Virus record (IMG/VR): IMGVR_UViG_2861079508_000005 | DNA: 28,687 nucleotides | DNA from: a virus | Lineage: Duplodnaviria > Heunggongvirae > Uroviricota > Caudoviricetes | Reading direction: 5' to 3' (one strand) | Shown here: positions 220 through 22,309 of the stretch, piece by piece | Layout: every line of letters begins with the position of its first letter | How positions within the stretch are numbered: position 1 is the first letter of the stretch | Made by a program: the position numbers and the translations under genes | Notes under the pieces: generated by a model | Told to the model about the DNA's origin: nothing | Seen by the model: only the letters and a program-made list of their open reading frames with translations | The model's database searches: none

Positions 220-300
220 CGCGAGCACCTCTTCCGGTTTTGTTGATGTTGCCATTTTAGTTAAATTATCCTTATAAAACAAACAGATAAAATAAAAACA

Positions 301-1464
301 TCACTCATCATCTTCTGTTTCGTACTCCACATCAGAAAGCCTGACCTCAAGCTCTAAGGACGTCGTGAAGCCGCTATTATTCAGAAAATGTGTCACCTTA
401 GTGATTGTCCAGTCCTGCTCGTCTATGACGCGCTTAAAGCCTGACACCTTAACCGGTGTTTCCGTGTAAATATCTGCCCGACCGGTAGCCAGGCTGATGG
501 AGAACTCCGCAACGCCCCGTTGCAGTTTATCCCACTTCGCCTGAGCGGCGCGCATGGCCTGCGCTTTCGTGGCATATACCGTGGTCAGGGCAAAAACATT
601 GTCAGCCTCACCGGCCATGTATTCACCTTCGCGCGCTTCCGGTACTTTTGGCGCTTTCTTCTGCGTGACCGGTTTCGCTTTCGGGTGCTCCAGTGCGCGC
701 AGGTGTTTCTCTTTCTTTTTGCGTTTCAGTTTTACCTTCTGCTTTTGTGGCTTCGGGTCTTTGGTGTGTAACCACTTTGCCGTTACGCCGGTGTAGGCTC
801 CACGGTCAGCAATCGCAAAATGATGACGGTCGCCGTCGCTGCGGGTGATGGTAATCTGCGGGATTTTTTTACCGCTGGCCGTCACCCCCTGCCCCGCTTT
901 GAGAAACAACAATTTTCCCATTTTTACCGACACCTCACCGCCGTTGCGTTCTGCAAGACGGGTCAGGAATTTCGCATCAGACTCCTGCGACTGGTCGATG
1001 TGCGGGATTTTAATTCCTGCCAGTGACGGCGCGACACTGGCTTCCAGCCTGTTACGGGAGGCTATCGCCTCAACAATCGCACCGAGCGTGGTGTCATGCC
1101 AGGAGCCTTCACGGCGGGAATTGAGCGTCCCGCGAAAATCTGCACTCCGGGCGCGGATGGTGACCACATCCGGTGCGCCCCGGTGTTCAACCTCATCAAC
1201 GGTAAATTTCCCTTTGCATACCAGGGCAAAACCTTTCCAGCCGATATACACCGTCAGGACAGCGCCACGAACCGGCAGCCCGACCTGCCCGTCGGCATCG
1301 TTCAGTTCAATATCAAGCTGGTCAGCCTCAAAGCCCCGGCTATCCGTCAGGGTCATGCTCATCAGACGGTCGCTGATATTGCCGGTAATATCCCTGCTGT
1401 CGAGCATCAGCATGTAATCCGGCGTCAGCGTACTGCCTGCATCAAATGTCAGCGCATCCAGCAT
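301..1464 (-). CDS. D: tail protein gpD
   Basis: 387 aa ORF between ogr and U; position and length match my recollection of P2 gene D. Confidence 0.7.
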   Translation of the reverse strand: MLDALTFDAGSTLTPDYMLMLDSRDITGNISDRLMSMTLTDSRGFEADQLDIELNDADGQVGLPVRGAVLTVYIGWKGFALVCKGKFTVDEVEHRGAPDVVTIRARSADFRGTLNSRREGSWHDTTLGAIVEAIASRNRLEASVAPSLAGIKIPHIDQSQESDAKFLTRLAERNGGEVSVKMGKLLFLKAGQGVTASGKKIPQITITRSDGDRHHFAIADRGAYTGVTAKWLHTKDPKPQKQKVKLKRKKKEKHLRALEHPKAKPVTQKKAPKVPEAREGEYMAGEADNVFALTTVYATKAQAMRAAQAKWDKLQRGVAEFSISLATGRADIYTETPVKVSGFKRVIDEQDWTITKVTHFLNNSGFTTSLELEVRLSDVEYETEDDE

Positions 1465-1943
1465 TATCCCGCCCCCGTCATACCCGTGAATCTGGTCGCC
1501 ATACTGCCAGCCTTACCGATGAGCGATTCCGCCTGTTTACCGATATCACCATAAAGCGCGGCCAGTGATTCATCAACGCGGGTGAGCGACAGCGTAAAAT
1601 CAATTTTTCGGGGTGTGCCGTCTGCAAAGAAAATACTCCCTGTTTCACTCACCCTGCTGATGACATACATGCCGTAAATCATGCCGGTGCCATCCAGCAA
1701 CGGCCACGCCCGGCCTTCCTCTGCCATCAGCCTGAGCGTGGTCATCGTCAGCTTCCCGCCGGTCAGTTCGGGATAAAGCACGCCTGCAAGCGTAATGTTT
1801 TCCTCACCCACACCGAGAAACTGGTAGGCATCCCGTTTACCGATACGGGAATTTGACGGCCAGCGATAATCTGATTCACGCTGCATGGTCTGGTGTGGCA
1901 GCGTCTGGCGCATAAAAACAAACATACCTAACGCGAGCATCAT
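1464..1943 (-). CDS. U: tail protein gpU
   Basis: 159 aa ORF whose stop overlaps the D start; P2 order T-U-D. Confidence 0.7.
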   Translation of the reverse strand: MMLALGMFVFMRQTLPHQTMQRESDYRWPSNSRIGKRDAYQFLGVGEENITLAGVLYPELTGGKLTMTTLRLMAEEGRAWPLLDGTGMIYGMYVISRVSETGSIFFADGTPRKIDFTLSLTRVDESLAALYGDIGKQAESLIGKAGSMATRFTGMTGAG

Positions 1944-1957
1944 TTTTCGTCACCTCC

Positions 1958-4405
1958 TTAACCGTCATGCATCATGCTGGCACGGGCGCGCGCACGTTTA
2001 TCCCGCTCGTATTTTTCGAGCGCATCCTGTAACTGGCGGTCGAGCTGAGTCCCCGGCGCAGTACCGCCCGTCAGACTGATGTGATATTCATTTTTACTCT
2101 GGTCCACATAAGAGCGGCCAGCCGGTGCCGTAACCGGCTGATAAGCCTGATAGCCTGCATAAGAGCTGGTCGCCGGAATATAACCACCGGTGCCATACGT
2201 GGCGGCATGAGTTCTGGCGGCGGTCTGGTCAAGTGTGTCTGACTCTTTGTTGATAACACCGAGTTTTTCCAGTACCCAGTCAATACCACTGCGCAGTTTG
2301 TTGAACGCATTAAGCGGCAGCATCAGCGCGTCAGCCAGTGCCTGCCCGAACATGACGCCCGTGTCACGGCAACGGTTCAGGGTGTCCTGGGTGGCTTTAA
2401 CCGGGGCGATCAGGTTTTTAAACCACTGCCACGCGGCCTGTAACTTTTCGCCCAGCCAGTCAAACACCGGCTTAAGTGGCGTGAACAGTTCCCCCACCGG
2501 CGCAAATGCCGCTTTCAGCCCTTCCACCACACCGCCAAAGAATGTGCTGACAGGCTCCCAGTATTTACGGATAAGCAACGCCCCGGCGACAATGGCGGCC
2601 ACCACGGCCACAACCGGCCAGCTAATCGCTCCGATGGCGGTCATAACAGCACTGCCAACCGTCGTGAAGATTGCCCCCATTGCGCCTGCTGCCGCGATGA
2701 TGGCATTGATGCCGGTGATAACCGGCCAGGCTACGAGGCCAATGGCACCGATGACACCAATCAGTGCCAGTGCACCACCGACAATGATGCCGATGGTTGA
2801 CGCCAGTGATTTGTTTTTCTGTATCCAGCCGTCGAGTTTTAACACATACTTTGTGGACGTCTGCGTGAGCTTACGCAGTGCGCCTTCCTGCTGGTCAAAC
2901 AGGTCAGTCCCCACCGCCTCATAAGCGGACTGAAACTCTTTAAAGTCACCGCCGAGGTTGTCCTGCATGATATTTACCAGCTCGGCGGTCTTCCCGTCTG
3001 AGGCTTTAAACGCAGCGGTCAGTTTGTCCAGCTTTCCGGTTGAGGCGGCAGTCATCAGCACGGCGGCGGCTGAGCTGGCCTCCTCCCCGAAAATAGTTTT
3101 CATGTATTCAGCCTGCTGGGCAGTACCGAGCCGGTTTCTCTCAAAACTGGCCTGCATTTCTTTCAGAATGGTAAATATTGGCCGGGTGTTTCCCTTGCTA
3201 TCTGAGGTTTTCACTCCAAGCTCTTTGAGTGCATCCCATGCTTTTCCCGTCGGTGCCTGCAGGCGACTTAACACGGCACGGCTTCCCGTCCCCGCCATTG
3301 AGCCTGTGATTTTTGCATCATGCAGCGCCCCGACCATTGCGGCGGTTTCTTCAATGCTGACACCGGCATTTTTTGCCACAGGTGCGGCATAGGTCAGCGC
3401 ATCGCTCATGCCGTCAAAATCGGCGGCGGTTTTGTTCATCGTCATGGAGAGAACATCCCCGATATGAGCGACCTTATCGTTTGAAAGCTGAAAGGCGGAT
3501 TTCATCCCCATCAGCAGGGCGGCGTTTTCTTCCATCGTGCGGCGGTTTGCCAGCGCCATATTCAGCGTGACCGGCGTTGCCGCCTGAATGGCATCAACAT
3601 CCCCACCCGCTTTCGCGATGATTATCTGTGCACCGGCCGCATCATCCGCCGAGGCGGCGGTATTGTCGCCGAGCTGGCGCGCCTGTTTGCGTAGTGCGGT
3701 CATTTCGGCGGAGTCTTTTGCCACTCCGAGCACGGCCTGCAATTCTGAGTTTTTCTGAGCAAACTCATAACCGGGCATCAGCAACTTAACTCCGGCCATC
3801 GTTCCCGCCGCCGCAATCCCCACACCGGCAGCGCCCACTGAGGCCATATTTCCGGCCAGTTCCTTTCCGGCCTGATAACGCTGTTTGACTGCGTTAAGTT
3901 TTGCCTGTTGCGCACTGACACGCGCCAGCGCGTCGCGCTGACGGTTAAGCTGTGTGGTGGTTTCACTGATACGGTTTTTCAGCCCTCGTTCATCATGCGC
4001 CAGATTACGGGTATTAATACCCGCCTGACTCAATTCCTGACGCTGGCGCTGTACCGACAATCTCAGGCTGTTATATTTCGCCTGTAACTCAGACGCATTT
4101 TTACGCGCGGCTTCCATTGCCTTTGCCTGTGCATTTGTCGGTCGTTCAGTATTTTTAAACTGGACAGCCAGAGCTGCGGCTTCCTGTCTGGCTTTTTTCA
4201 GTTCCTGACCAGTCACGGCGAGCTGTGCACTGGTCTTGCGAAATCCCTCAATACGGGATGCCTGACCGTTCAGCTCGCGCAGTGATTTTTGTGTTTCCCG
4301 GATATCCCCCGACAGCGATTTGCTCGCTGTGCGGATGGATTTAAACGGGCGGGATGCCTGGTCAACAGCCCTGAGCAATACCTGTAATTTTACATTGTTA
4401 CTCAT
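1958..4405 (-). CDS. T: tail tape measure protein gpT
   Basis: 815 aa; Ala/Gln/Arg-rich coiled-coil-like N-terminal half and Gly/Ala/Ile-rich hydrophobic central segment typical of tape measure proteins; located after E/E'. Confidence 0.85.
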   Translation of the reverse strand: MSNNVKLQVLLRAVDQASRPFKSIRTASKSLSGDIRETQKSLRELNGQASRIEGFRKTSAQLAVTGQELKKARQEAAALAVQFKNTERPTNAQAKAMEAARKNASELQAKYNSLRLSVQRQRQELSQAGINTRNLAHDERGLKNRISETTTQLNRQRDALARVSAQQAKLNAVKQRYQAGKELAGNMASVGAAGVGIAAAGTMAGVKLLMPGYEFAQKNSELQAVLGVAKDSAEMTALRKQARQLGDNTAASADDAAGAQIIIAKAGGDVDAIQAATPVTLNMALANRRTMEENAALLMGMKSAFQLSNDKVAHIGDVLSMTMNKTAADFDGMSDALTYAAPVAKNAGVSIEETAAMVGALHDAKITGSMAGTGSRAVLSRLQAPTGKAWDALKELGVKTSDSKGNTRPIFTILKEMQASFERNRLGTAQQAEYMKTIFGEEASSAAAVLMTAASTGKLDKLTAAFKASDGKTAELVNIMQDNLGGDFKEFQSAYEAVGTDLFDQQEGALRKLTQTSTKYVLKLDGWIQKNKSLASTIGIIVGGALALIGVIGAIGLVAWPVITGINAIIAAAGAMGAIFTTVGSAVMTAIGAISWPVVAVVAAIVAGALLIRKYWEPVSTFFGGVVEGLKAAFAPVGELFTPLKPVFDWLGEKLQAAWQWFKNLIAPVKATQDTLNRCRDTGVMFGQALADALMLPLNAFNKLRSGIDWVLEKLGVINKESDTLDQTAARTHAATYGTGGYIPATSSYAGYQAYQPVTAPAGRSYVDQSKNEYHISLTGGTAPGTQLDRQLQDALEKYERDKRARARASMMHDG

Positions 4406-4825
4406 TCGTGTTTCCGCTTCGCCGGAGCGCCTTTTCGCGCCATGTGATGAGTTCGGTCAGGCTCATGGGATACAGTTCTGATGGCGGCCAGTGAAATATC
4501 ACTGCCACATCCGCCATCAGGTCATCGACCGAGAGATTTTTTGGAAACGTCACTGCACCGAGTTCGGCGACAAAAAACCGACCACCTTACCGGCCAGCGC
4601 CACAAGGTCAGGCAGTTCCAGCGCGGCGACTTCCTGCTCGGTCAGCATCGGTGCCGTCATGCGCGGCAGCACCTTAATCAGTGCATCGACTTCGGAGTTC
4701 GCGACCGCTGCCAGACTGACACCGCGCAGCGTCCCGGCATTGGGTTTCATCAGCGTGACCTGTTCAATAACCTGCTCACCACGTTTGACCGGATTGTCCA
4801 GGGTAATGACATTTTCTTTGTTCAT
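4398..4825 (-). CDS. gpE+E' fusion produced by programmed -1 frameshift
   Basis: Hand translation: after a -1 slip at T_TTT_TTG (plus-strand 4571-4577) the frame stays open through ...VAELGAVTFPKNLSVDDLMADVAVIFHWPPSELYPMSLTELITWREKALRRSGNTNE and stops at 4398-4400, overlapping the T start codon. Confidence 0.6.
4550..4825 (-). CDS. E: tail assembly chaperone gpE
   Basis: 91 aa ORF upstream of T; contains the slippery run TTTTTTG near its 3' end. Confidence 0.8.
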   Translation of the reverse strand: MNKENVITLDNPVKRGEQVIEQVTLMKPNAGTLRGVSLAAVANSEVDALIKVLPRMTAPMLTEQEVAALELPDLVALAGKVVGFLSPNSVQ

Positions 4826-4880
4826 GGTTTTCTCACTTCTGAATCGGGGTTACCGGTCAGCCTGGCTGACCGGATGAAAA

Positions 4881-5399
4881 TCACAGGCCGATATTGCGGC
4901 GGTGTTGCTCCAGCCGGTCGACGCCGTTCACCTTCTCAATCATGTTGATGGTGTCAATTTCGACCAGCTCCTTACCGTCCATCGTCAGCCGGAAATAGGT
5001 GCAGACCACGGAGATTTTCGACTCGGTGTCTTCTCCCTGTTTGCCCTCGCCGGTGTCGATTTCTTTCTGACGTCCACGCATGACCACCTCGACGGCCACC
5101 GTTTCGCCGGTATCGTCGCGCTGGTAAGAGCCTGCAAAACGAATCGGTACGGCATCCACACCGGTTGCGGCGTAAAGCTCCCAGATAACCGAATCCGGGA
5201 AGCCACCGAGCGACCACTCCATTGACAGCGCATCGTCATCAAGGCCGAGGTCTACCGGTGCGCTGCCGTTCATTCCCGCACCGCGATAGTTTTCGAGCTT
5301 ACGGGTCAGTTTTGGCAGCGTGACGGACTTTGCAACGCCCTGATAGCTGTACCCGTTCAGAAAGACGTTCATTAACTTGAGTTTGCGCGGCATTGCCAT
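4881..5399 (-). CDS. FII: tail tube protein gpFII
   Basis: 172 aa ORF directly downstream of the sheath gene; P2 FI-FII arrangement. Confidence 0.8.
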   Translation of the reverse strand: MAMPRKLKLMNVFLNGYSYQGVAKSVTLPKLTRKLENYRGAGMNGSAPVDLGLDDDALSMEWSLGGFPDSVIWELYAATGVDAVPIRFAGSYQRDDTGETVAVEVVMRGRQKEIDTGEGKQGEDTESKISVVCTYFRLTMDGKELVEIDTINMIEKVNGVDRLEQHRRNIGL

Positions 5400-5411
5400 C
5401 GGTCAGGCTCC

Positions 5412-6602
5412 TTAATTGCTGTTAACCGAGGTGACCAGATTTGCCAGGTATTTATCGGTAATACGCTGGCGCAGGGTCAGGTTTTCGAGTGGAGGCACCG
5501 GGGTATAGTCGTAGTCGATATACAGTTTTCCGGCCTTAAGGGTTTCCGCATCGTTGGATTCTTCGCTGAACCAGCAGGTCGCATCCACGATATAGCCGTT
5601 TGTTTTCAGCTCACGGAATTTGGCATTGATGCCGTCAACGATGTCACGAATCAGCGTTGCGGTGATGGGCTTGTCCACCGCCCACATGTGCGCCTCAGCC
5701 ATCGTGTCGGCCAGCACCTGCGCGGTACGGGTGTAGTTTTCAAAGAGGAACAGCGGGTCATCAGAGCAGGTACGGTTACCCCAGAATCGGAAACCGTCAC
5801 GGCGAATCAGCGTAGTGACGCCTGACTCGTTAAGCAGGTCAGCATCGGTGCCGGACTCCTGCAAATCCCAGAATACAGAGGCGCTGATGCCGGTAACACC
5901 GTTCACCCCGACATTGGACAGCGTTTTATGCCAGCCCTGCTCCTGGTCGATTTTAGCGCGCAGGCCCAGCGCACGGGCGGTGGCATACGCGGTGGCGGTG
6001 GTACTGGCGACCGTATCCCATGCGAGGAAATCCGGCCAGATGACCATCAGCTCACGCTGGCTGAAATTCTGGCGGTAGGCTTTCACCTCGGAAATGGTTT
6101 TACAGCCCCATGCGCTGATATACCCGAAAGCGCGCAGCTTCTGACAGACTGATGCCAGTGCAACCGCCACCTCTTTGGTGTCCAGTCCCGGCACACCGAG
6201 AATACGCGGTTTAACACCGGTAACCGACTCCGCCGCCAGCAGGGCTTTTAGTCCGGTGTACTGACCGTTTTCGTCGGTGGTGCCGATGATATTGGAAACG
6301 GTCTGCGCGAGTTTCGTTTCCTCGTCATCACCGGTGCCGTCTTCCACGCGCACGACAACGGTGACCGGTTTTGACTGGTCAGCGATGGCCTGCAACGATG
6401 CCGCCAGCGTGCCTTTTTTACCGGCCTTTGCAATTGCGCTCTGCACATTGGTAATCAGCACAGGTTTATTGAGGGGGAAGGTTTCCGCATCCGCATCGCT
6501 GGCCGTGCAGACCATGCCGACAATGGCAGTGGATACGGTGGAAATGACGCGGGTGCCGTCGTTAATCTCCAGCACTTGCACGCCGTGATGATAGTCACTC
6601 AT
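5412..6602 (-). CDS. FI: contractile tail sheath protein gpFI
   Basis: 396 aa ORF; position and length match P2 FI. Confidence 0.85.
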   Translation of the reverse strand: MSDYHHGVQVLEINDGTRVISTVSTAIVGMVCTASDADAETFPLNKPVLITNVQSAIAKAGKKGTLAASLQAIADQSKPVTVVVRVEDGTGDDEETKLAQTVSNIIGTTDENGQYTGLKALLAAESVTGVKPRILGVPGLDTKEVAVALASVCQKLRAFGYISAWGCKTISEVKAYRQNFSQRELMVIWPDFLAWDTVASTTATAYATARALGLRAKIDQEQGWHKTLSNVGVNGVTGISASVFWDLQESGTDADLLNESGVTTLIRRDGFRFWGNRTCSDDPLFLFENYTRTAQVLADTMAEAHMWAVDKPITATLIRDIVDGINAKFRELKTNGYIVDATCWFSEESNDAETLKAGKLYIDYDYTPVPPLENLTLRQRITDKYLANLVTSVNSN

Positions 6603-6661
6603 CCGTTTAACTCCGTGGTTAATGGGTGAGTGATATTTTCAGTTGTGCCGGAGATGTCAGG

Positions 6662-7261
6662 CTATTTGTCCCGGTTGGCTAAGGGATGACACAATTTATT
6701 CTTTGTCGCTGATGAGGGGAATTTTTTATAGAGCGTGGACAGGCCAATATCAAAAATCAGCGCCACGCGTTGACGTGATTCACCCGCAGCCAGCAACCGT
6801 CCTGCCTGTTCCCACTCACTCGCGGTGAGCTTCGGACGTCTGCCACCAATACGACCTTTAGCTCTGGCCGCTTCCAGTCCGGCGCGTGTCCGCTCGACAA
6901 TGAGTTCTCGTTCCATTTCAGCCAGGGCACCCATCACATGAAAGAAAAAACGCCCCATCGGCGTGCTGGTATCAATAGCATCCGTCAGGCTGCGAAAATT
7001 AACGCCGCGTTCGCGCAGTTCCTCAACCAGAATGATCAGATGCCGCATACTACGCCCCAGCCTGTCCAGCTTCCAGACCACCAGTGTATCCCCCTCCGAT
7101 AATGTCCTGAGCAGTTTTTTCAGTCCCGGTCGGTCGGACTTAGTGCCGCTGATTTTATCCTCAAAAATCAGCTCACATCCTGCGCACTCCAGCGCGTTAC
7201 GCTGCAATTCCGTGTTCTGGTCATTTGTTGACACGCGTACATAGCCAATAAGCATGAGCAT
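6662..7261 (-). CDS. serine-type DNA invertase (Hin/Gin/Cin/Pin family)
   Basis: N-terminus LIGYVRVSTNDQNTELQRNAL with catalytic Ser, plus DRLGRS, GRFFFHVMGALAEMERELIVERT and a C-terminal HTH, all closely resembling Hin/Gin; true start probably ATG at 7255. Confidence 0.85.
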   Translation of the reverse strand: MLMLIGYVRVSTNDQNTELQRNALECAGCELIFEDKISGTKSDRPGLKKLLRTLSEGDTLVVWKLDRLGRSMRHLIILVEELRERGVNFRSLTDAIDTSTPMGRFFFHVMGALAEMERELIVERTRAGLEAARAKGRIGGRRPKLTASEWEQAGRLLAAGESRQRVALIFDIGLSTLYKKFPSSATKNKLCHPLANRDK

Positions 7262-7282
7262 CCCCCTGAATAAAAACCGGAG

Positions 7283-7789
7283 ATGATGCCAGTTGCCCGT
7301 TATCTCTGCATTTTCATAAACGTTGGTTTGGGAGAAGGTTCGGCATTACCCGTTGGTGTGCCTGTTCCGTGGCCTTCAGCCACACCGCCTACTGGCTGGC
7401 TGAAATGCAACGGTGCGGCTTTTTCTGCTGAAGAATACCCGGAACTGGCAAAGGTTTATCCGACAAATAAATTGCCTGATTTACGCGGTGAATTTATTCG
7501 TGGCTGGGATGACGGACGTGGAGTGGATGCCGGGCGACAATTATTATCTTCACAAGGGGATGCAATAAGAAATATTGAGGGATTCGCAGATGGCGGGATC
7601 GGTATGTCTTTTGATGCAATCAGAGGGGCTTTTTACGATGCAGGAACACGATCAGCGAGAATGCCGAATAACACAACTACTATAGACAAAACCGATGACC
7701 TTGGATTCGACGCCTCTCGTGTCGTGCCAACAGCTAATGAAAACCGTCCACGTAACATCGCCTTTAATTATATTGTGAGGGCTGCATAA
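7283..7789 (+). CDS. silent alternative tail-fibre C-terminal variable segment (no own start; expressed only after inversion)
   Basis: Contains PVPWPSATPPTGWLKCNGAAFSAEEYPELAKVYP...LPDLRGEFIRGWDDGRGVD, a phage tail-fibre tip (tail collar type) motif; the frame runs through the crossover site; functional part about 7325-7789. Confidence 0.65.
   Translation: MMPVARYLCIFINVGLGEGSALPVGVPVPWPSATPPTGWLKCNGAAFSAEEYPELAKVYPTNKLPDLRGEFIRGWDDGRGVDAGRQLLSSQGDAIRNIEGFADGGIGMSFDAIRGAFYDAGTRSARMPNNTTTIDKTDDLGFDASRVVPTANENRPRNIAFNYIVRAA
7311..7336. repeat. invertase crossover site, left (hix/gix-like, inverted relative to 9142-9167)
   Basis: Reverse complement reads TTCTCCCAAACC-AA-CGTTTATGAAAA; 15 nt identical to the right site; resembles hixL TTCTTGAAAACCAAGGTTTTTGATAA (from memory). 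Confidence 0.6.
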
Positions 7790-8382
7790 TGAAACCTTTT
7801 TTTGATGAAAATGGGCTGGCTACAGTACCGGGTAATATGCGTTGTTTTTATTATGAGGCAGTTACGTATGAATATACTGGCTGGTCTGATGAATATATTA
7901 ATACTGGCGTAAGTATGCCCGCCTGTTCCACTGGTATTGACCCGGGCGAATGCATTCCGGGGAAAGTGGCAGTATTTACGGGTAAGGGATGGAGCCATGA
8001 AGAAGACCACCGCAATGAGACTGTTTACTCAATCGAAAATGGCGCAGCTGTTACAGTGGATTATATCGGTGCCATCAAAGACGGTTATGTCACACTTTCA
8101 CCGTTAACGCCATACGATAAATGGGATGGTGAGAAATGGGTGACGGATACTGAGGCACAGCATAGTGCCGCAGTAGACGCGGCAGAAGCACAGCGCCAGT
8201 CGCTGATTGATGCAGCAATGGCTTCCATTAGTCTGATTCAGCTGAAATTACGGGCCGGACGGAAGTTGACGCAGGCAGAAACAACCAGACTTAACGCTGT
8301 GCTGGATTACATTGACGCGGTGACGGCAACAGATACCAGCACCGCGCCGGATGTCATCTGGCCTGAACTGCCGGAGGCGTAG
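7789..8382 (+). CDS. alternative tail fibre assembly protein (chaperone for the silent fibre tip)
   Basis: 197 aa ORF immediately after the silent fibre tip; C-terminus ...DTSTAPDVIWPELPEA parallels the gpG C-terminus ...DTSSAPDIEWPTPP; Mu U/U'-like arrangement. Confidence 0.65.
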   Translation: MKPFFDENGLATVPGNMRCFYYEAVTYEYTGWSDEYINTGVSMPACSTGIDPGECIPGKVAVFTGKGWSHEEDHRNETVYSIENGAAVTVDYIGAIKDGYVTLSPLTPYDKWDGEKWVTDTEAQHSAAVDAAEAQRQSLIDAAMASISLIQLKLRAGRKLTQAETTRLNAVLDYIDAVTATDTSTAPDVIWPELPEA

Positions 8383-8794
8383 GCCATTCAATATCTGGTG
8401 CACTGGAGGTATCAACCAGCTCCAGTGCATCCAGATAATCCAGCCACAAATTATATTGCGCCAGTTCCTCACCTTTCAGGCGACCAATCGCCGCTTTACC
8501 AAGCCATTGCTTTCTGTTTATGTATTCGTTGATCTGATTAATCAATTGCTGCTTTTCCAATTCGGCTGCGGCAATTTGTTCCTCATGAGTTGGCGGTGGA
8601 ATATCAATCCATGCAGGCATTCCGTCGATGACACCTCTGTATTTTCCTTCTGGTGCTTCCTTCATAAATTCGGCGGCAACAGTGTCGTCAATTTCGATTC
8701 CATCATCGGGCCATTCGCCGGATTCCTGATAAGCGATTTTAAGCTCCACAGGGAAAAACGCATTTTTATCGGCGCTGAAAATATATTTCTGCAT
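8354..8794 (-). CDS. G: tail fibre assembly protein gpG
   Basis: 146 aa ORF directly downstream of H; conserved C-terminal motif shared with the ORF at 7789-8382. Confidence 0.75.
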   Translation of the reverse strand: MQKYIFSADKNAFFPVELKIAYQESGEWPDDGIEIDDTVAAEFMKEAPEGKYRGVIDGMPAWIDIPPPTHEEQIAAAELEKQQLINQINEYINRKQWLGKAAIGRLKGEELAQYNLWLDYLDALELVDTSSAPDIEWPTPPAVQAR

Positions 8795-8796
8795 TT

Positions 8797-9981
8797 CTAC
8801 CGTCCTATCGAAATATAACTGAATCTGTATTGCTGTGAGATATCACTGGTTGCCACACGCCACGCTGAATTACTGATATGTTCAAAATTTACAGACAAAA
8901 CCTGCGGGGCAGGATTCGACGGGTCTGACTGAACGGCATCAGACATAACACTGACTGAAACCATCGGCTGATTAGGGAATGGTATAGGGAAGTGTCCACT
9001 GATAAAGCGGGTCGAGTTTCCTGAAAAAGTGCCAAACTGAACAATATATCCACCTGGTAGCCTGAACCATCCCGAACCAGAAGCGAATGCTCCCATATCC
9101 GGTATCTGATTATCTCCTGTGCCCACATCCCTTTTCGCCGCTTCTCCCAAACCAAGGTATGCGAGAAGACCGGCAACATCCTTCCCACTCAAATGAGTCA
9201 GCGTCTCATCCAGTGGCTGCTTACCTGACAGCGCATTGTTAATGGTGGTGCTGAATTTCGGGTCATTGTTAATGGCTGCGGCAATTTCTTTCAGTGTATC
9301 CAGCGTGGCAGGCGCACCGTTAATCAGAGCGGTAATAGCGGCCTGTACAAACGCAGTGGTCGCAATCCGCGTGGTGTTATTTCCTGCGGCAGGCGTCGGC
9401 GCTTTTGGTTCTCCGGTAAATGTCGGATTATGTTTCTGTGCATACTGGGTATGAGGATCCTGTGCGGCAATGTGGTTTCTCATCTGGTCATCCACATACA
9501 GCTTTAATTCCAGGACTTCATCATCCACGTATTTACGGGTCGCCAGTACCACCGACGGGTCGATTTTCAGCGTGATGGCTTCGGTATTCGTGACAACCAG
9601 AATCATGCGGATAGTCTGGGTACGACCGCTGCCTTCCTGCAACTGCGGTTTGTACGTTTCCGGGCAGTTCGCCACCGCAATGAGTACGCCTTCATCATCA
9701 TAAAGCCCAATCTCACGGATCCAGAATCCGCCCTCGTTCTCAGGGATGATTTGCTCCGCAATAATCTGGCTCTGGTTGTTCGGGTCAACACTCAGAAGAT
9801 TCAGCGGCGCGATGCGTTTCTGGTTAATCAGTTTTGTCTGTGCCGGGTCTGGTGTCGGCAAGACACCATTCGCATCACCAACGGCCATTTGCGTCAGATT
9901 CAGCTTACTGCCGAGCATCGTCGCGTTAGCCAGCCGTGCTGCGCCCTGATTAGTCAGAATGGCGTAGTATTTCACTGTCAT
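8797..9981 (-). CDS. H: tail fibre protein gpH (constant N-terminal part plus currently expressed variable tip)
   Basis: N-terminal region (...AVGD...GGFW.RE.GLYDD.G.LIAVAN..E.YKP.L.EGSGR.Q..RM) matches the conserved P2 H baseplate-attachment domain; 394 aa; the crossover site lies at codons about 272-280. Confidence 0.8.
   Translation of the reverse strand: MTVKYYAILTNQGAARLANATMLGSKLNLTQMAVGDANGVLPTPDPAQTKLINQKRIAPLNLLSVDPNNQSQIIAEQIIPENEGGFWIREIGLYDDEGVLIAVANCPETYKPQLQEGSGRTQTIRMILVVTNTEAITLKIDPSVVLATRKYVDDEVLELKLYVDDQMRNHIAAQDPHTQYAQKHNPTFTGEPKAPTPAAGNNTTRIATTAFVQAAITALINGAPATLDTLKEIAAAINNDPKFSTTINNALSGKQPLDETLTHLSGKDVAGLLAYLGLGEAAKRDVGTGDNQIPDMGAFASGSGWFRLPGGYIVQFGTFSGNSTRFISGHFPIPFPNQPMVSVSVMSDAVQSDPSNPAPQVLSVNFEHISNSAWRVATSDISQQYRFSYISIGR
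9142..9167. repeat. invertase crossover site, right (hix/gix-like)
   Basis: TTCTCCCAAACC-AA-GGTATGCGAGAA inside H; encodes LLAYLGLGE in the H frame. Confidence 0.6.
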
Positions 9982-10589
9982 GCGTTTACTCTCAGGTTAT
10001 CAATTAAATGAATGGCCGAGGCCGGGAAATAATCCCCTCCGACAATAATGGCCTCCGGGGTGTAGGGATAAACCGTCAGGGCGTCGCCGTGATAGCATCC
10101 CGCACCGGCAAAAATGTTGCCGGTTGTACTTAAACTGATAGCCAGTCCCGTCAGATGGCGGCTTGCCGGTTTTGCATCAGCAACGAGGCGCTCCAGCTCC
10201 TGATACATTTCCTCGGTAATACCCTGCTCAAGCACGCCGACAACGATACGGAACGTCCCCGGCTCCTCGTTGAGCTGCCACCACTCCCTCACCTCAATCA
10301 GATAGCCGAGTGGCTCCACCACACGGCGAATCGCACCAATAGTGCCCTTATGGCAGTGAATGAAATACGCATCGCGGATAACAGCGCGTTTTGTCGCTTC
10401 CGGCCACTTATCATCCCAGCGGTCAACCGAAAATGACCACGCCAGCCACGGCAGCAGATTTGCCGGACAGGTATCCGGGTTCCACAGCTCACGAATACTG
10501 ACCGGCGTTTTTTCAATTTCCGCACAGGCTTTTGCGGCGGCAACTTCAAGCAGTGATGAGCCGGTCGGCAGCAGTCGCGAATCACTCAT
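9978..10589 (-). CDS. I: baseplate assembly protein gpI
   Basis: 203 aa ORF between J and H with overlapping stop/start; P2 order J-I-H. Confidence 0.7.
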   Translation of the reverse strand: MSDSRLLPTGSSLLEVAAAKACAEIEKTPVSIRELWNPDTCPANLLPWLAWSFSVDRWDDKWPEATKRAVIRDAYFIHCHKGTIGAIRRVVEPLGYLIEVREWWQLNEEPGTFRIVVGVLEQGITEEMYQELERLVADAKPASRHLTGLAISLSTTGNIFAGAGCYHGDALTVYPYTPEAIIVGGDYFPASAIHLIDNLRVNA

Positions 10590-11490
10590 CCGAGCCTCCG
10601 GTCACGACGCGGTATTCGGTACAGAAAGACGCCTGCGTACTGTTGAGCACGATGTCGGCCAGTGGTGCAGCCAGTTCGACACGCTGCACACCTTCCACAT
10701 GCAAAGCGGCATAAATGGCAGACAGACGGATGTCACGCCCCAGCCGGTGCTGTGCCGTGATATACGCTTCCAGTTTTTTCACGGCGGCAGCGCGGATGGG
10801 TTCGCTTTCGGGACCAGGGTAAAGGTAAAGCGTGGCGTTTATCTGGTATTCAACGATGGCGGCAGACTGCACGGTCACGCGGTCGGCCACCGGCCTGACG
10901 TCCTCGCCATTCAGGGCGTTACGCACCACAGCCAGCAGGTCTTCGGATGCGACACCGTTATTTTCACGTGACAGTACGGAGATGGTGACGCAGGCCGGAG
11001 ACGGACTGGTGACAGAGATATCCGCGACACGCCCGTCGGCACTGCGACCATGATACTGATAGGCTCCCACCGACCCGGCGACGCTTAAGCCCTCAAACGC
11101 CTGCTGAATACGCAGACGATAATCGGTGTCAGATTCCATCACTGCCGGTGTCGGCGGGATAGTCGAATCATCTGCCGGAGTGATAATCAGGCGCGTGGTG
11201 TTGTAATTGGCACCAATCACATCAAGGTCATTACCGGCGGCACAGGCCAGCATCACCGCCCGTGCGGCCTCATTCACACGCTGACGCCAGATAAGCTCAC
11301 GATAAGCATTTTCCTCCAGCAGTTTGACGAGAGGCTCGGATTCCAGCGTCAGGGTACGGGCGACCGCCTCCTGCTGGTCTTCCGGGTAAAGGGAAATCAG
11401 TGTCGCCTTGCGTTCGGCGAGAATGGTTTCAAAGTCCAGCTCCTCGACCACATCCGGTGCGGGTAGCTGGTTCAGGTCGATAATCGGCAT
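10582..11490 (-). CDS. J: baseplate wedge protein gpJ
   Basis: 302 aa ORF; position W-J-I; length matches P2 J. Confidence 0.75.
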   Translation of the reverse strand: MPIIDLNQLPAPDVVEELDFETILAERKATLISLYPEDQQEAVARTLTLESEPLVKLLEENAYRELIWRQRVNEAARAVMLACAAGNDLDVIGANYNTTRLIITPADDSTIPPTPAVMESDTDYRLRIQQAFEGLSVAGSVGAYQYHGRSADGRVADISVTSPSPACVTISVLSRENNGVASEDLLAVVRNALNGEDVRPVADRVTVQSAAIVEYQINATLYLYPGPESEPIRAAAVKKLEAYITAQHRLGRDIRLSAIYAALHVEGVQRVELAAPLADIVLNSTQASFCTEYRVVTGGSDE

Positions 11491-11494
11491 GGTT

Positions 11495-11842
11495 TCAACT
11501 CACAGGGATGGTTAACGAAAGTGGCTGGCCGGTGTCGTTGTGCTGACCTGTTAACGTGACCGTCATTCGCCCGTCAAAACTGCGCGCCGTGGTGACGGAT
11601 GACAGGGTGACGCGGGGTTCCCATTTCAGCACCGCCATGTAACAGGCGACCTTAATCTGCAACTCAAGCGCCGGAGTCTGCGGCTGGTCAATCATTGACG
11701 CCAGCAACGAGCCGTAATCACGACGCATCACCCGTGAGCCGACCGGTGTGCGCAGGATATCGCCGATACTCTGGCTGATATGCTCAAGGTCAATGACCGT
11801 CAGGCCATCACTGCGATTCATTCCGAGATAACGCGCTGTCAT
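11495..11842 (-). CDS. W: baseplate protein gpW (gp25-like)
   Basis: 115 aa ORF between V and J. Confidence 0.7.
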   Translation of the reverse strand: MTARYLGMNRSDGLTVIDLEHISQSIGDILRTPVGSRVMRRDYGSLLASMIDQPQTPALELQIKVACYMAVLKWEPRVTLSSVTTARSFDGRMTVTLTGQHNDTGQPLSLTIPVS

Positions 11843-12474
11843 AAAGGACTCCCGGTTGTGCCGCCGCTGTCGCCGGGGTGTTTGTGGGCATGCAGTACCT
11901 TACCGTTTGATGAGAGTTCACCGCCGGTGTGTTCAATGTTGCCGCGCATCGTCCCGCCCTTCTGCACTTCCAGCGTGCCGGTAGTCAGTTTGTTAGTGCA
12001 GACCACTTCTGGTGTGTCCAGGGTGACGCGGGTTGATGCTTTCACCGTGACCACCGGTACCGTGGCAGTAACAGAATCAGAAGCCGTCACGCTGGCCGTT
12101 TTAATTCCGCTTACCGTGAGTGCACTGGTTTCGGGTTCATACTCAATCACCGCCCCGTCAGGGAAACGGATATGCAGGGCATCCGCCGACGCAGACGGCG
12201 CAGGGTTATCGCCGGAATAAATCCCCGGCAGAACGAACGCCGTGTCGAGTTCACCGCCCACGGCCAGAATCAGCACCTGCTCCCCCACGGAAGGTGCCCA
12301 CCATGTGCGCGAACGCCCGGCACGACAGGTCAGCCACTGAAGCCAGTCGGTGCACATGCCGCCGGTCTGCACACGGCAGCGACCGGCGTTAAGGTCGGTT
12401 TCGACGACAAGGCCGGTGCGAATCATGTTGCGCAGTGCGCGCGCGAGTTCCTGAATATTTGCGAGAGTGTTCAT
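11839..12474 (-). CDS. V: baseplate spike protein gpV
   Basis: 211 aa ORF; position S-V-W. Confidence 0.7.
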   Translation of the reverse strand: MNTLANIQELARALRNMIRTGLVVETDLNAGRCRVQTGGMCTDWLQWLTCRAGRSRTWWAPSVGEQVLILAVGGELDTAFVLPGIYSGDNPAPSASADALHIRFPDGAVIEYEPETSALTVSGIKTASVTASDSVTATVPVVTVKASTRVTLDTPEVVCTNKLTTGTLEVQKGGTMRGNIEHTGGELSSNGKVLHAHKHPGDSGGTTGSPL

Positions 12475-12540
12475 AACGGGAAGGATGCCGCCGGGTCATA
12501 CCGGCGGCAATGTGACGATGAGGTGTCAGGAATGGCACAA

Positions 12541-12993
12541 CTAACGGTCGAGGTGAGCCAGGATAATCTCTTCAATCATCTGCACATCCTCACTGGTAAA
12601 GCCGAGCAGAGGACGCGCCGGATAATCAATTTTCTTACCGTCTTTCCGGTTTTCTTCCGACAGACCGAACTGATGCACGCTGGCGATTTTCGGTGACTTC
12701 CCGCCGTAAAACTCCATTGATGCCTGTTCCGGGCTGGCGCGGATATGCAAAAAACGACTGGTGATAAGTTTCGCAAACATTTTTCGCTTAACACGACCAG
12801 TCTTTTTTCTGGCGCTCTGCTGCTGGCGTGGCGCGTAGGGTGTGCCGTCCGGGGCTTTCTGAGCCATCACCCGACGCTGCTGACTCTGCCGCAGACGTTT
12901 CGCCAGTTCGGCGCTCAGTCGCCGACGCCCTGACGGTGACAGCGATTCAATCAGTCCGGTCAGCCGGTCTTCAAAACGCTTAAACTCATTCAT
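12541..12993 (-). CDS. S: tail completion protein gpS
   Basis: 150 aa ORF; P2 order R-S-V. Confidence 0.65.
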   Translation of the reverse strand: MNEFKRFEDRLTGLIESLSPSGRRRLSAELAKRLRQSQQRRVMAQKAPDGTPYAPRQQQSARKKTGRVKRKMFAKLITSRFLHIRASPEQASMEFYGGKSPKIASVHQFGLSEENRKDGKKIDYPARPLLGFTSEDVQMIEEIILAHLDR

Positions 12994-13453
12994 CCCACTT
13001 GCTCACCAGTTCGCCATTGATATAAAGCTCCACCGGGCGGGTGACCGGCTCCGGCGGCGTGGGTTCCGGGATATTCTTCACATGCAGTGCGCCGTCAACC
13101 TCACTGACCAGCGTGCGCTCGGTCAGCATCAGGCTGATACTGATATCAAAGCTGCTGTCATTGTTGATGTCCGCATAAAACGTGAAGCCCTTTTTCTGGC
13201 CTTCGTCGGTGGTCATGATGTCGGGCTGATTTTCCCGCAGCCACGCCAGCACCGGCACAATGAGCAGGTCAAAATCACCGGTAAAGTCGGTCACAATGAC
13301 ATTGAGCGTGTAACGCTTTTCGAATGACAACGACGCCGCCAGCGTGGAGGCAATACTCCCGTTATCCACGAATATCCGCAGCATATCGGGGTTAGTTTTC
13401 AGCACCGTGACGGCATCAGTCAGCGCCCTGCGCAGGCTGTCGGGTTTGAGCAT
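12986..13453 (-). CDS. R: tail completion protein gpR
   Basis: 155 aa ORF after the lysis genes; overlaps the S start. Confidence 0.65.
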   Translation of the reverse strand: MLKPDSLRRALTDAVTVLKTNPDMLRIFVDNGSIASTLAASLSFEKRYTLNVIVTDFTGDFDLLIVPVLAWLRENQPDIMTTDEGQKKGFTFYADINNDSSFDISISLMLTERTLVSEVDGALHVKNIPEPTPPEPVTRPVELYINGELVSKWDE

Positions 13454-13706
13454 CGTTTTCGTCCTGACAGTGTTTAATCATTTTTACCTGGCTGGCACAG
13501 CGTGCCAGCGCGTTCTCAAGCTGCCGGATATCGGCACTTAAATCACCGTTCGTCTCCGGGTCAATGCCCGGCATCGGGCAAAGACTCACTTTCGGGCAGG
13601 CGTTGTGGACAATCACTGGCGTCGGCGCAGGCGGGGCGCTGGTGCAACCGGCGCACAGTATCAGGCAGGTCAGCGCCGTACCAGCGGCGAAAATCTTCGT
13701 TTTCAT
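13416..13706 (-). CDS. lysC: LysC, Rz1-like outer-membrane lipoprotein (o-spanin), embedded out of frame in lysB
   Basis: Internal start MKTKIFAAGTALTCLILCAGC with signal peptide and lipobox LCAGC, followed by a Pro-rich segment; 96 codons; overlaps lysB and R. Confidence 0.65.
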   Translation of the reverse strand: MKTKIFAAGTALTCLILCAGCTSAPPAPTPVIVHNACPKVSLCPMPGIDPETNGDLSADIRQLENALARCASQVKMIKHCQDENDAQTRQPAQGAD

Positions 13707-13986
13707 TGAGTAACCTCGTGATGGCTTTCTCGCGCTGTGCTTCACGCTTCGCGGCGCTCTCCAGTTCCTGACGCAGTGCCACCTGCGCCAGCTCGTTTTT
13801 GTCTGCCCTGGTGAGAGCAACATGAAGCTGATTTTTCAGCATGGTGATGGTCGTCTGCTGCCCGCTGGCGACGTTGTTCGCCCTGTCCAGCGAGGCGCGC
13901 AGGCTGGCATTTTTGTGTTTCACCAGAAACAGACCGGACACCGCCAGCGATAACAACACGACCAGCACAATCATCAGCTTTGACAT
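13561..13986 (-). CDS. lysB: LysB, Rz-like i-spanin
   Basis: 141 aa; N-terminal transmembrane helix (LMIVLVVLLSLAVSGLFLV) then a charged coiled-coil-like region; position after lysA. Confidence 0.65.
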   Translation of the reverse strand: MSKLMIVLVVLLSLAVSGLFLVKHKNASLRASLDRANNVASGQQTTITMLKNQLHVALTRADKNELAQVALRQELESAAKREAQREKAITRLLNENEDFRRWYGADLPDTVRRLHQRPACADASDCPQRLPESESLPDAGH

Positions 13987-14399
13987 GGTTCCCGCTCCTC
14001 AAGACGCTGACGGCAGGCCGTACATATCAGCCGGAAGAACAGCGACGCCACGAGATAAATCAGCGCGGTAAAAATCCACCCGGCAGCGACCAGCGAGATA
14101 AACGTCGCCACCATCACCACCAGAGCCGCTGCCCGCCTGCGCCACGGCACCGGCTGCAAAAACAGCGACGTGACAATCTTCACGGCCAGCGATTCCGGTG
14201 GCAGCTCCCGCCCGTAGCGTTCCAGCACATACTCAGTGGCATACACCCCGACACCACCGGCAACCACACAGATAACCGTCGCCAGAATCGCCCAGGCGGC
14301 GACAAAACTGACGGCCACGCTCTGCGGGTAAATCAGGGACAGTGCCAGCATCAGTGCCAGCGACACGTTCAGCATCAGTGAAAGGGATAATTTCTTCAT
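13974..14399 (-). CDS. lysA: LysA membrane protein (lysis timing)
   Basis: 141 aa; several hydrophobic predicted transmembrane segments; position between K and lysB. Confidence 0.6.
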   Translation of the reverse strand: MKKLSLSLMLNVSLALMLALSLIYPQSVAVSFVAAWAILATVICVVAGGVGVYATEYVLERYGRELPPESLAVKIVTSLFLQPVPWRRRAAALVVMVATFISLVAAGWIFTALIYLVASLFFRLICTACRQRLEEREPCQS

Positions 14400-14413
14400 G
14401 GTGTTTACTCCGT

Positions 14414-14911
14414 TTAAGCCGGTACGCCGCCAGCGGTACGCCAGACGGTGACCAGTTTTTCCAGTGAATGCTCACGCTGACCGTAACCGGCACCCGGCAG
14501 GGACGCCCAGATATTGCGACAGCGTGAAATGGCGCGCTCAATGCGTCCCGCCCGGATGTCATCCAGTGCACCGCGTTCGCGGATCAACTGAATGGCGAGT
14601 CTGTCCTGTGACAACGGACTGAAATCAGGCAGGGCAAGCTGTTTACGGTAGTGCGGCCAGAACAGGTAAAGCTGCTGATAGCGACCGGAGGCCGTGGATT
14701 TTTCACCGCGACGGTTAAACACCTTCGCTGGTCGGCCATGTGCGAACGGGTGGTCACTGTAGTCGGTGAAAATTTCCGGCTTTCCGTCCAGTCCGGTGAC
14801 TATCACGTCATAGCCCCGGTTTTTCGTCAGCGGATGATTCGCCGTCCCTTCGGACACGGCCAGCATGTCGAGAAAGGCGGCGATATTCTGATGTGTGTTA
14901 ATTACCGGCAT
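14414..14911 (-). CDS. K: endolysin gpK
   Basis: 165 aa ORF immediately after the holin; P2 Y-K arrangement. Confidence 0.75.
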   Translation of the reverse strand: MPVINTHQNIAAFLDMLAVSEGTANHPLTKNRGYDVIVTGLDGKPEIFTDYSDHPFAHGRPAKVFNRRGEKSTASGRYQQLYLFWPHYRKQLALPDFSPLSQDRLAIQLIRERGALDDIRAGRIERAISRCRNIWASLPGAGYGQREHSLEKLVTVWRTAGGVPA

Positions 14912-15192
14912 TACGGTTTCCCCCTGCCCTTAAAGCGGCGCTGAATGGCAATCTCAATCACCTGATAACCGGCGATACCCAGCATGGAGCCAATGCCGCA
15001 CACCGCAGGCAGTGACAGGTCAGGAAACTGCACCAGAACAACACCGGCAACCATCGAGACAAAACCACCAAGCAACATGCGCCCGATAAACAGACGCGGG
15101 GTGATGGGTTCACCACCGGCAAGCACCTTGCCGACAACAATCAGCACCCCAATCATGAAAAGCGACAGGACGCTTTTTTCTTCTGCTGTCAT
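14911..15192 (-). CDS. Y: holin gpY
   Basis: 93 aa with hydrophobic transmembrane segments and a charged C-terminus; start overlaps upstream gene (ATGA). Confidence 0.7.
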   Translation of the reverse strand: MTAEEKSVLSLFMIGVLIVVGKVLAGGEPITPRLFIGRMLLGGFVSMVAGVVLVQFPDLSLPAVCGIGSMLGIAGYQVIEIAIQRRFKGRGKP

Positions 15193-15195
15193 GCG

Positions 15196-15399
15196 TTACT
15201 CCCACAGATTGACAGTTTCAGCCACGGGCGCGGTCTGAACGTCGGGCAGTTCGACGGCGGTGCCGTGCGGCAGCACCGCACCCAGTTCAGCCAGTCCCGG
15301 ATTTGCGGCGAGCACGGCCCCGACCACGCCCTCAGTGCGCCCGTAATACCGGACACAAATGGCGTCGAGCGTGTCGCCCTGTAGCGCAAAGGTCTTCAT
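15196..15399 (-). CDS. X: tail protein gpX
   Basis: 67-codon ORF from internal ATG (MKTFALQGDTLDAICVRYYGR...); the track ORF is N-extended. Confidence 0.6.
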   Translation of the reverse strand: MKTFALQGDTLDAICVRYYGRTEGVVGAVLAANPGLAELGAVLPHGTAVELPDVQTAPVAETVNLWE

Positions 15400-15908
15400 C
15401 AGATTTGACTCACGATGCAGCGCGGCTTGTCCTGGATGCGCGCCACTGCCCAGCGCATATCCCGCCACAGCTCATCAATGGTGCTGTCAATGCTGTCGGC
15501 CTTCTTGTCGCCTTTCGCACTGGCATCCACGCCGCGATAACGCTCATAAAGCGACGCGGTCGCCATCGCACACACGGCGCGCTCGTAGTAAAAAACTTTG
15601 ATGCTTTCACCGTCGATATCGTCTGCCGGAACGTCCGCCAGACGCGTAAAACCGGCGGCAATTTTCTGTTCGCGGTACTCGTACAGCTCCGCATTTGTTT
15701 CCGCCATGCCTGACTTGATGGCCTCACGCAGACGGGCGGGGGCGACGGTCTGCTCAAGGCGCATACGTTCCCGGACGCGCTTCGGGTCGATATCGGGAAA
15801 AAAGAACGTGTTTTTAATCACCGGCTCGTCGCCTGCCGGTTGCGGGATGACCACCGTACCCTCACCGGACACGGGAGCCTCCTTTCGCGGAATAATCAGC
15901 GTCATCAT
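15399..15908 (-). CDS. L: head completion protein gpL
   Basis: 169-codon ORF from internal start MMTLIIPRK; position M-L-X. Confidence 0.65.
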   Translation of the reverse strand: MMTLIIPRKEAPVSGEGTVVIPQPAGDEPVIKNTFFFPDIDPKRVRERMRLEQTVAPARLREAIKSGMAETNAELYEYREQKIAAGFTRLADVPADDIDGESIKVFYYERAVCAMATASLYERYRGVDASAKGDKKADSIDSTIDELWRDMRWAVARIQDKPRCIVSQI

Positions 15909-16007
15909 GACTACCTCTGAAAAGTCGGGCGGTGGACGCCGGTGCAGTGTCAGGTGATTCACCCTCACTGACCGGCGTGCCGCCCTGGCGCGGGGCGCAT
16001 TCGGTTG

Positions 16008-16751: not shown

Positions 16752-16754
16752 CGG

Positions 16755-17828: not shown

Positions 17829-17886
17829 ATTTTTTCCTGAAATTAAGGGTTAATCGTGAAGGTTTGCCCGGACTGGCTGACGCCGG

Positions 17887-21721: not shown

Positions 21722-21726
21722 ACATC

Positions 21727-22243: not shown

Positions 22244-22309
22244 TTTTCCGGCTCTCTGTTCGGTGATATGCCAAATCACTTTGCGTTTAAACAGAGCATT
22301 ATTTCAGGG

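Follow-up and report, generated by a model that had tools for sequence, protein, structure and literature searches.

Tail-fibre switches of the Din type are textbook systems of phages Mu and P1 and of the e14 element, and the Fin invertase of Salmonella Fels-2 is a further invertase carried by a P2-like prophage in the Z/fun hotspot. Comparative work on this hotspot found that a DNA invertase is frequent there, together with inversion of neighbouring genes (bioRxiv 10.1101/2024.10.15.618418). Inversion was demonstrated experimentally in P2-like prophages of EPEC, with validation in two prophages, one of which carries the simple form with two states, and inversion of the e14 segment was shown by WGS and PCR (PMC4272514). 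An invertible fibre switch is thus a well-known kind of element, and P2-like phages are already documented carriers. The locus described here lies in a stretch of 28,687 nt (the window), and is read as an active tail-fibre switch with two states, of the Din (Hin/Gin/Cin/Pin) type, in an Escherichia coli P2-like prophage, with a probability of about 0.9; activity of the invertase itself is predicted from its sequence.

The backbone of the prophage is that of P2. In a blastn comparison, window positions 1-6682 matched P2 24254-17572 with 96.4% identity, and positions 10153-12474 matched P2 12629-10308 with 94.7% identity; overall, the flanks 1-6682 and 10153-21909 follow P2 colinearly with 95-98% identity. 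The gene order is that of P2, and the variable DNA falls between G and FI, as in P2-like phages (Peduovirus) that carry cargo in the Z/fun hotspot. Between the flanks, the module at 6683-10152 replaces P2 12630-17571; the lost P2 DNA comprises H, G, and fun(Z), together with the 3′ end of I and the outer part of the pF activator site. Relative to P2, the replaced DNA starts inside gene I, and stops inside the pF activator site. The P2 annotation gives 669 aa for H and places fun(Z) between G and FI; the replaced interval thus includes fun(Z), as expected from the sequence-only reading, which had assigned the switch to the Z/fun slot and had taken the short H (394 aa) as a sign of module replacement. 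The activator-binding site of the pF late promoter is annotated at P2 17555-17583, and the alignment puts its homologue at 6671-6699 on the minus strand, where it is not a part of the switch.

The recombinase gene is an intact minus-strand open reading frame (6662-7261), which matches the Pfam families Resolvase (2.3e-52) and HTH_7 (1.1e-12). The product combines an N-terminal catalytic domain that carries the nucleophilic serine (Ser9 in Gin, Ser10 in Hin) with a C-terminal helix-turn-helix, as in the Din family. It is 86% identical to PinE of e14, 80% to Gin, 78% to Cin, and 97% to the invertase of phage pro483, and the Gin structure 3uj3 aligns to residues 1-182 (E = 1.2e-94). All key residues are kept, including Ser9, within the MLIGYVRVS N-terminus, Arg7, and Arg42. 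Fis- and enhancer-dependent invertases differ from resolvases in the basic helix-B residues K47, K/R48, and K/R51 of Hin and in residues Q151, R154, and L155 of helix 1 of the DNA-binding domain (PMC3798978); the counterparts here are K46, K47, and R50, and Q150, R153, and L154 (numbering equals that of Hin minus 1). Judged by its sequence, the recombinase is a member of the Hin/Gin/Cin/Pin group, the family to which it had been assigned at first reading. The coordinates proposed then held for the open reading frame, which reaches an upstream ATG at 7261, but the true start is probably the ATG at 7255, giving a protein of 197 aa (6662-7255), since this start has the better Shine-Dalgarno spacing, yields the Pin/Gin/Cin-type N-terminus, and agrees with the RefSeq start. 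A simple scan of 7256-7322 for an invertase promoter found no sigma-70-like site, and a simple scan for a V-operon terminator gave weak terminator-like hairpins only.

The beginning of the invertase gene contains a putative Fis-dependent recombinational enhancer (7166-7237, minus strand; gene nt 19-90). Two 15-mers resembling the Fis consensus, GNNYRNNWNNYRNNC, are found at 7219-7233 and 7171-7185, with their centres 48 bp apart, the spacing of paired Fis sites in such enhancers. Matches to the degenerate Fis 15-mer should turn up roughly every 500 positions, and a match taken alone is therefore not significant. The assignment is based instead on position: pinE, gin, and cin carry both 15-mers at matching places in the gene, and 58 of the 72 positions of 7166-7237 agree with the annotated P1 enhancer (cin nt 19-90). 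Coding constraint confounds this conservation and explains it in part. The arrangement, with two Fis-like sites in cis near the start of the gene, is that of the Gin and Cin enhancers, and Fis binding is regarded as putative.

Two 26-bp crossover sites flank the fibre-tip genes. The invertase-proximal site (7311-7336) reads TTTTCATAAACG-TT-GGTTTGGGAGAA with the central dinucleotide at 7323-7324, and the distal site (9142-9167), located within the H coding sequence, reads TTCTCCCAAACC-AA-GGTATGCGAGAA on the plus strand with the central dinucleotide at 9154-9155. The sites are inverted, have the 26-bp architecture of the family, and match in their central dinucleotides (TT/AA), and they bound an invertible interval of 1,833 bp (7323-9155). 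They ranked top in a consensus scan of the window, with family-consensus scores of 18/20 and 19/20, in the range of the e14, Mu, and P1 sites; with at most three mismatches allowed, the 26-bp consensus was found once in the window and never in 100 shuffles. The longest inverted repeat of the region coincides with them (7311-7337/9141-9167, arms separated by 1803 nt). The inverted 26-bp pair around a segment of about 1.8 kb, proposed from the sequence, was thus recovered, with the amendment that only 15 bp are perfectly repeated (7323-7337/9141-9155) and that, as is usual in this family, the outer half-sites are not alike. Consensus and half-site scans of the window found no third crossover site, and a shufflon or multi-state switch, as in one EPEC P2-like prophage, was rejected, given that the window holds two sites only.

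The segment holds two convergent cassettes, each composed of a fibre tip and its own chaperone. In the present orientation H (8797-9981, minus strand; 394 aa) joins a Phage_tail_fib N-terminus (Pfam, 2.1e-62) to tip A. The constant part (9156-9981, minus strand; about 275 aa) lies outside the invertible segment; it is 42% identical to the N-terminal region of P2 H, and its residues 184-257 share 74% identity with the repeats of P1 S. Tip A (8797-9153, minus strand), currently expressed, carries a Gp53-like_C domain (Pfam; H residues 307-394), and is followed by a chaperone of 146 aa equivalent to gene G (8354-8794, minus strand; Caudo_TAP, 3.4e-34). On the plus strand are the silent tip B (7325-7789), with a Phage Tail Collar domain (Pfam, 3.9e-15), and its chaperone, a tail fibre assembly protein of 197 aa (7789-8382; Caudo_TAP, 1.6e-27); the tip B frame opens at an in-frame ATG that lies beyond the segment boundary (7283/7286). 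The two chaperone genes overlap by 29 bp, tail to tail. This arrangement agrees with the sequence-only reading, in which H ended in one tip followed by chaperone G and a collar-type tip with its own chaperone lay on the opposite strand, ready to be fused to the H N-terminus by inversion. The fusion was reproduced in silico. When the interval was flipped at the central dinucleotides, the constant part of H came into frame with tip B, giving an open product of 430 aa (H′); GLGE is encoded in the same frame at either site, with the junction …LLAYL-GLGE…. Tip B fused to H matches the solved short tail fibre chains 9cuy (2.2e-31) and T4 gp37 (2xgf), and both tips carry receptor-binding-type domains.

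Both orientations were found among natural copies. In E. coli GF31 the flipped arrangement is colinear in one piece at 99.8% identity, and the annotated H gene of 1293 nt has exactly the length predicted for the 430-aa H′. The flipped form is also present in TUM10828 (99.0%) and in five more genomes. Full-length, single-piece matches to near-identical prophages in E. coli genomes numbered 4 in the native and 7 in the flipped orientation, and matches at 80% coverage or more numbered 19 and 28, respectively. E. coli F163 carries the prophage twice, and its copies match at 100% over 15,401 bp, save for an exact reverse complement of the 1803 bp between the repeat arms. The inversion breakpoints lie exactly within the 15-bp repeat core, and both crossover sites coincide with them. 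It had been stated beforehand that the proposed switch would be contradicted if only one orientation were ever seen; instead, both forms occur among near-identical prophages, and both within F163.

The enzyme that catalysed these inversions might have come from elsewhere, with other resident Din invertases, such as e14 PinE or a Mu-like Gin, inverting the segment in trans, and the adjacent gene playing a minor part. Din invertases can replace one another (PMC8987985), and the enzyme of another prophage could thus have catalysed the natural inversions. The proximal site is identical at 26 of 26 positions to the pinE-proximal site of e14, and 3877 of 5426 E. coli genomes contain related sequence, which suggests that related invertases and segments are common. 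However, the resident enzyme is intact, the enhancer homologue occupies the canonical position in its gene, and the invertase gene adjoins the segment in the relatives inspected (pro483, GF31, F163, and SKA5), making a predominant drive in trans very unlikely. Even less credit is given to a frozen relic, in which the invertase or the sites would be non-functional and the fibre fixed in its present orientation. Such fossils exist, as is seen from P2 H, which keeps a lone site identical at 23 of 26 positions to Mu gixL without an invertase. Here, by contrast, the invertase frame is intact with its key residues, both sites are intact with matching central dinucleotides, and near-identical prophages, including the two F163 copies, are found in both orientations. 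That the orientation differences are assembly artefacts is highly improbable: assemblers can choose either orientation from mixed reads, and two identical 15-kb copies in F163 are hard to phase, but mixed reads would in themselves reveal inversion, full-length, single-piece matches in either orientation come from 11 independent complete genomes, the breakpoints fall precisely inside the repeat core, and PCR-validated inversion has been published for related loci (PMC4272514).

An active two-state switch would be expected to work as follows. Dimers of the invertase would bind the inverted crossover sites, of which the first lies immediately upstream of the invertase gene and the second within H. 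With host Fis bound to the enhancer, which falls within nt 1-90 of the invertase gene, the enzyme would cut both sites at the central dinucleotide. Strand exchange at both sites would then invert the interval 7323-9155. The promoter of H and its first ~275 codons would stay fixed, and each orientation would add one of two unrelated C-terminal tips in frame, followed by the assembly chaperone of that tip: the Gp53-like tip in the present 394-aa H, and the collar-type tip in the 430-aa H′. Given these two tip-chaperone pairs, a population of lysogens would be predicted to release virions of two receptor specificities. A change of host range between the orientations is suggested by the unrelated tip domains, Gp53-like_C and Collar.

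Two side observations concern the edges of the module. A block with ~95% identity to phage SKA5, an e14/Mu-baseplate phage, runs from the 5′ end of the invertase gene, including the enhancer, through the segment, and stops exactly at the distal site (9166/9167). Tip A is 97% identical to the tip of the SKA5 side tail fibre, whereas the SKA5 invertase is 54% identical overall and the constant part of the SKA5 fibre is unrelated. At the other edge, the last ~13 codons of the invertase frame overlap the P2 pF late-promoter activator site, and on account of this overlap invertase expression and late transcription could interfere with each other. The suggestion that crossover sites double as exchange points between unrelated phages, and that such interference takes place, is speculative and rather doubtful.

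The switch adds no new principle. It does bear on annotation, where the silent cassette is routinely labelled as a separate 'phage tail protein' and the true H exists as a 394-aa and a 430-aa form. In phage work or host-range prediction with this prophage, a mixed virion population is to be expected.

Among the known systems, the P segment of e14 in K-12 (stfP/tfaP, tfaE/stfE′, and pinE) has the same gene order and the same 29-bp tail-to-tail overlap of the chaperone genes. The tip B chaperone is 62% identical to TfaE, tip B is 61% identical to StfE, and the tip A chaperone is 56% identical to TfaP, whereas sequence comparison of tip A with StfP detected no similarity. In e14, a defective lambdoid element whose baseplate is of the Mu type, the constant part is short (StfP, 209 aa), while the prophage described here has a P2 H-type N-terminal constant part and a complete P2 backbone, and its invertase differs from PinE by a 13-residue C-terminal extension that is read from P2 promoter DNA. 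The G segment of Mu with Gin and the C segment of P1 with Cin are built alike, with a constant Sc part outside, Sv-U and Sv′-U′ cassettes inside, and an adjoining invertase gene with an internal enhancer. The present segment is shorter (1.8 kb, compared with ~3 kb in Mu and 4.2 kb in P1), its tips are unrelated to those of Mu and P1, the chaperones are only ~30% identical over the C-terminus, and the site half-sequences differ. P2 itself shares the colinear backbone, a gene I that is 82% identical, and a homologous N-terminal domain of H, but has a fixed H, a single chaperone G, fun(Z), no invertase, and only the single fossil gix-like site. Other P2-like carriers of an invertase in the Z/fun hotspot include 'P2' of O157:H43 T22 and the P2-like prophages of EPEC E2348/69; in one EPEC locus three repeats give four states, compared with two sites and two states here. 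Escherichia phage pro483 has the same annotated layout, with both 26-bp sites identical and an H that is 80% identical, but the tip pair differs from the one found here, and its tip and chaperone cassettes are 62-67% identical. With this shared cassette layout between P2-colinear flanks, the locus follows the logic of the Mu G segment, the P1 C segment, and e14 Pin in a P2 backbone, as had been proposed from the sequence.

An invertible tail-fibre switch, as proposed by the sequence-only reading, was confirmed in the window, where the invertase, the inverted sites, an in-frame alternative fibre and both natural orientations were all found, and its interpretation is supported. The ORFs of the module are flanked by the gene for the tail sheath, FI (5412-6602), and by gene I (9978-10589), both on the minus strand. 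The recombinase ORF (6662-7261, minus strand) matches Pfam Resolvase (2.3e-52) and HTH_7 (1.1e-12). The 394-residue fibre H (8797-9981, minus strand) has a P2-type Phage_tail_fib N-terminus and a Gp53-like_C end, and the chaperone G (8354-8794, minus strand) is a Caudo_TAP protein. On the plus strand, the alternative tip ORF (7283-7789) carries a Phage Tail Collar domain, and is accompanied by its own Caudo_TAP chaperone (7789-8382). The two chaperone genes run towards each other, and their 3′ ends share 29 bp (8354-8382), as in the e14 tfaP/tfaE pair. Outside the invertible segment, in-frame ATGs at 7283 and 7286 begin a reading frame that extends into the silent cassette in either orientation. 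RefSeq lists this frame as a 'phage tail protein' gene of its own, 504 nt long in the native state and 399 nt after the flip; its translation is probably poor, because GGAG lies only 0-3 nt from these codons.

The longest inverted repeat of the region (7311-7337 and 9141-9167) has arms separated by 1803 nt. These arms contain the two 26-bp crossover sites, TTTTCATAAACG-TT-GGTTTGGGAGAA at 7311-7336 and, as the reverse complement, TTCTCGCATACC-TT-GGTTTGGGAGAA at 9142-9167. The sites are inverted relative to each other, match perfectly over a 15-bp core and have the same central dinucleotide. A consensus site with three or fewer mismatches occurred in none of 100 window shuffles, and consensus and half-site scans of the window detected no third site; the pair is therefore real rather than a chance occurrence, and the ORFs, domains and sites are present as originally described. 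Both sites translate in one frame as …GLGE…, in H on the minus strand and in the opposite-strand tip ORF on the plus strand. In-silico inversion (reverse complementation of 7323-9155) yielded an open 430-residue fibre (H′), in which the constant 275 residues run into the collar-type tip, with the second chaperone directly after it, bearing out the proposed fusion of the alternative tip to the constant H N-terminus.

Natural examples of both orientations were identified by megablast searches of 5,426 complete E. coli genomes. The native arrangement gave four full-length single-piece matches (best 99.9%, strain ARS-C301) and 19 matches at ≥80% coverage, and the flipped arrangement gave seven (including GF31, 99.8%, and TUM10828, 99.0%) and 28, respectively. 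The GF31 H gene is annotated at 1293 nt, exactly the predicted 430 residues, and the alignment of GF31 with the window falls into three pieces with breakpoints within the 15-bp repeat core. E. coli F163 (NZ_OY754349) carries two prophage copies far apart on the chromosome (1.77 Mb and 4.64 Mb), 100% identical across 15,401 bp except for the stretch of 1803 bp enclosed by the repeat arms, where one copy is the exact reverse complement of the other. Thus, both orientations occur among essentially identical elements; a single orientation, which was to count against a switch, is not what public E. coli genomes contain.

The recombinase belongs to the Hin/Gin family, as had been recognized: its identity is 97% with the DNA invertase annotated in phage pro483, 86% with e14 PinE, 80% with Mu Gin and 78% with P1 Cin; residues 1-182 align with the Gin crystal structure 3uj3 (E = 1.2e-94). 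Translation of the invertase probably begins at the ATG at 7255 (MLIGYVRVS, nucleophile Ser9), which is also the RefSeq start. The enzyme has every residue by which Fis/enhancer-dependent invertases are told apart from resolvases (K47, K/R48, K/R51, Q151, R154 and L155 in Hin numbering; PMC3798978). The Cin enhancer is annotated at cin nt 19-90 in the P1 record, and the homologous stretch of the window, 7166-7237, is identical at 58 of 72 positions. Within this putative enhancer lie two 15-mers that resemble the Fis consensus (7219-7233 and 7171-7185). Their centres are separated by 48 bp, the spacing rule for paired Fis sites, and pinE, gin and cin have them at the same positions within the gene. 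Part of this conservation stems from coding constraint, so that Fis dependence of inversion is suggested rather than demonstrated.

At the sequence level, the enzyme family, site architecture, in-frame alternative fusions, provision of one chaperone per tip and precise natural inversion are established. By analogy with Hin, Gin and Cin, invertase dimers would bind both crossover sites, an invertasome would assemble on the Fis-bound enhancer, and cleavage at the central dinucleotide would be followed by subunit rotation. The native tip is Gp53-like_C, and the collar-type tip matches the solved short tail fibre chains 9cuy and T4 gp37 and gp12; since these domains are unrelated, the two forms of the fibre may bind different receptors.

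Window 1-6682 corresponds to P2 (NC_001895) 24254-17572 at 96.4% identity, window 10153-12474 to P2 12629-10308 at 94.7%, and the remaining late region is likewise colinear. Window 6683-10152 takes the place of P2 12630-17571, an interval with the 3′ portion of I, the 669-residue H, G and fun(Z) as well as the outer portion of the pF activator site; the suggested module replacement in the Z/fun slot is therefore correct. The breakpoint at 6682/6683 falls within the invertase ORF, whose last codons (…LCHPLANRDK) are P2-derived DNA matching the activator-binding site of the pF late promoter (P2 17555-17583, window 6671-6699); reading past the breakpoint into P2 DNA accounts for the 13 extra C-terminal residues that PinE lacks. 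P2 lacks an invertase, and its H gene contains a single fossil crossover-like site, TTATCGAATATCTCGGTTTACAGGAA (13857-13882), 23/26 identical to Mu gixL; the fixed P2 fibre looks like the frozen descendant of an invertible one. Elsewhere, orf30 is absent (12475-12538 differs from P2), the old/tin hotspot (21939-22816) is cut to roughly 880 bp, in which no ORF exceeds 88 residues, and the immunity and integrase region (26838-28687) shows only 66-70% identity to P2 or no relation to it. The order ogr, cos, int is that of a prophage.

The element is of an ordinary, already known kind, with a 99.9% identical copy public. Whole-genome sequencing detected inversion in e14, a Mu prophage and two P2-like prophages of EPEC E2348/69, of which one simply alternates between two variants and the second, with three repeats, has four; PCR validated the e14 inversion and four variants of one P2-like locus, and the authors credited Hin homologues alternating tail fibres for all detected inversions (PMC4272514). 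The annotated layout of the window recurs in the deposited records of phage pro483 and of the O157:H43 T22 prophage 'P2', and the segment also occurs, at 96.7% identity, in Klebsiella Peduoviridae phages (Kp4845-2 and others). Sequence comparisons place the incoming module in the e14 type: its invertase-proximal site equals the one beside pinE at 26/26 positions, the tail-to-tail 29-bp chaperone overlap is common to both, and TfaE, StfE and TfaP are 56-62% identical to their window counterparts. Phage SKA5, which has a Mu/e14-type baseplate, is about 95% identical (OR670062 3337-5349) to window 7158-9166, a block comprising the start of the invertase gene with the putative enhancer (from 7158), both crossover sites and both cassettes. 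The homology breaks off precisely at the distal crossover site. Overall, the SKA5 invertase is only 54% identical, which places a junction inside the invertase gene, and the constant part of the SKA5 fibre is unrelated. Sharing of the block between elements with divergent invertases and constant parts indicates that the cassette pair moves between phage types as one unit.
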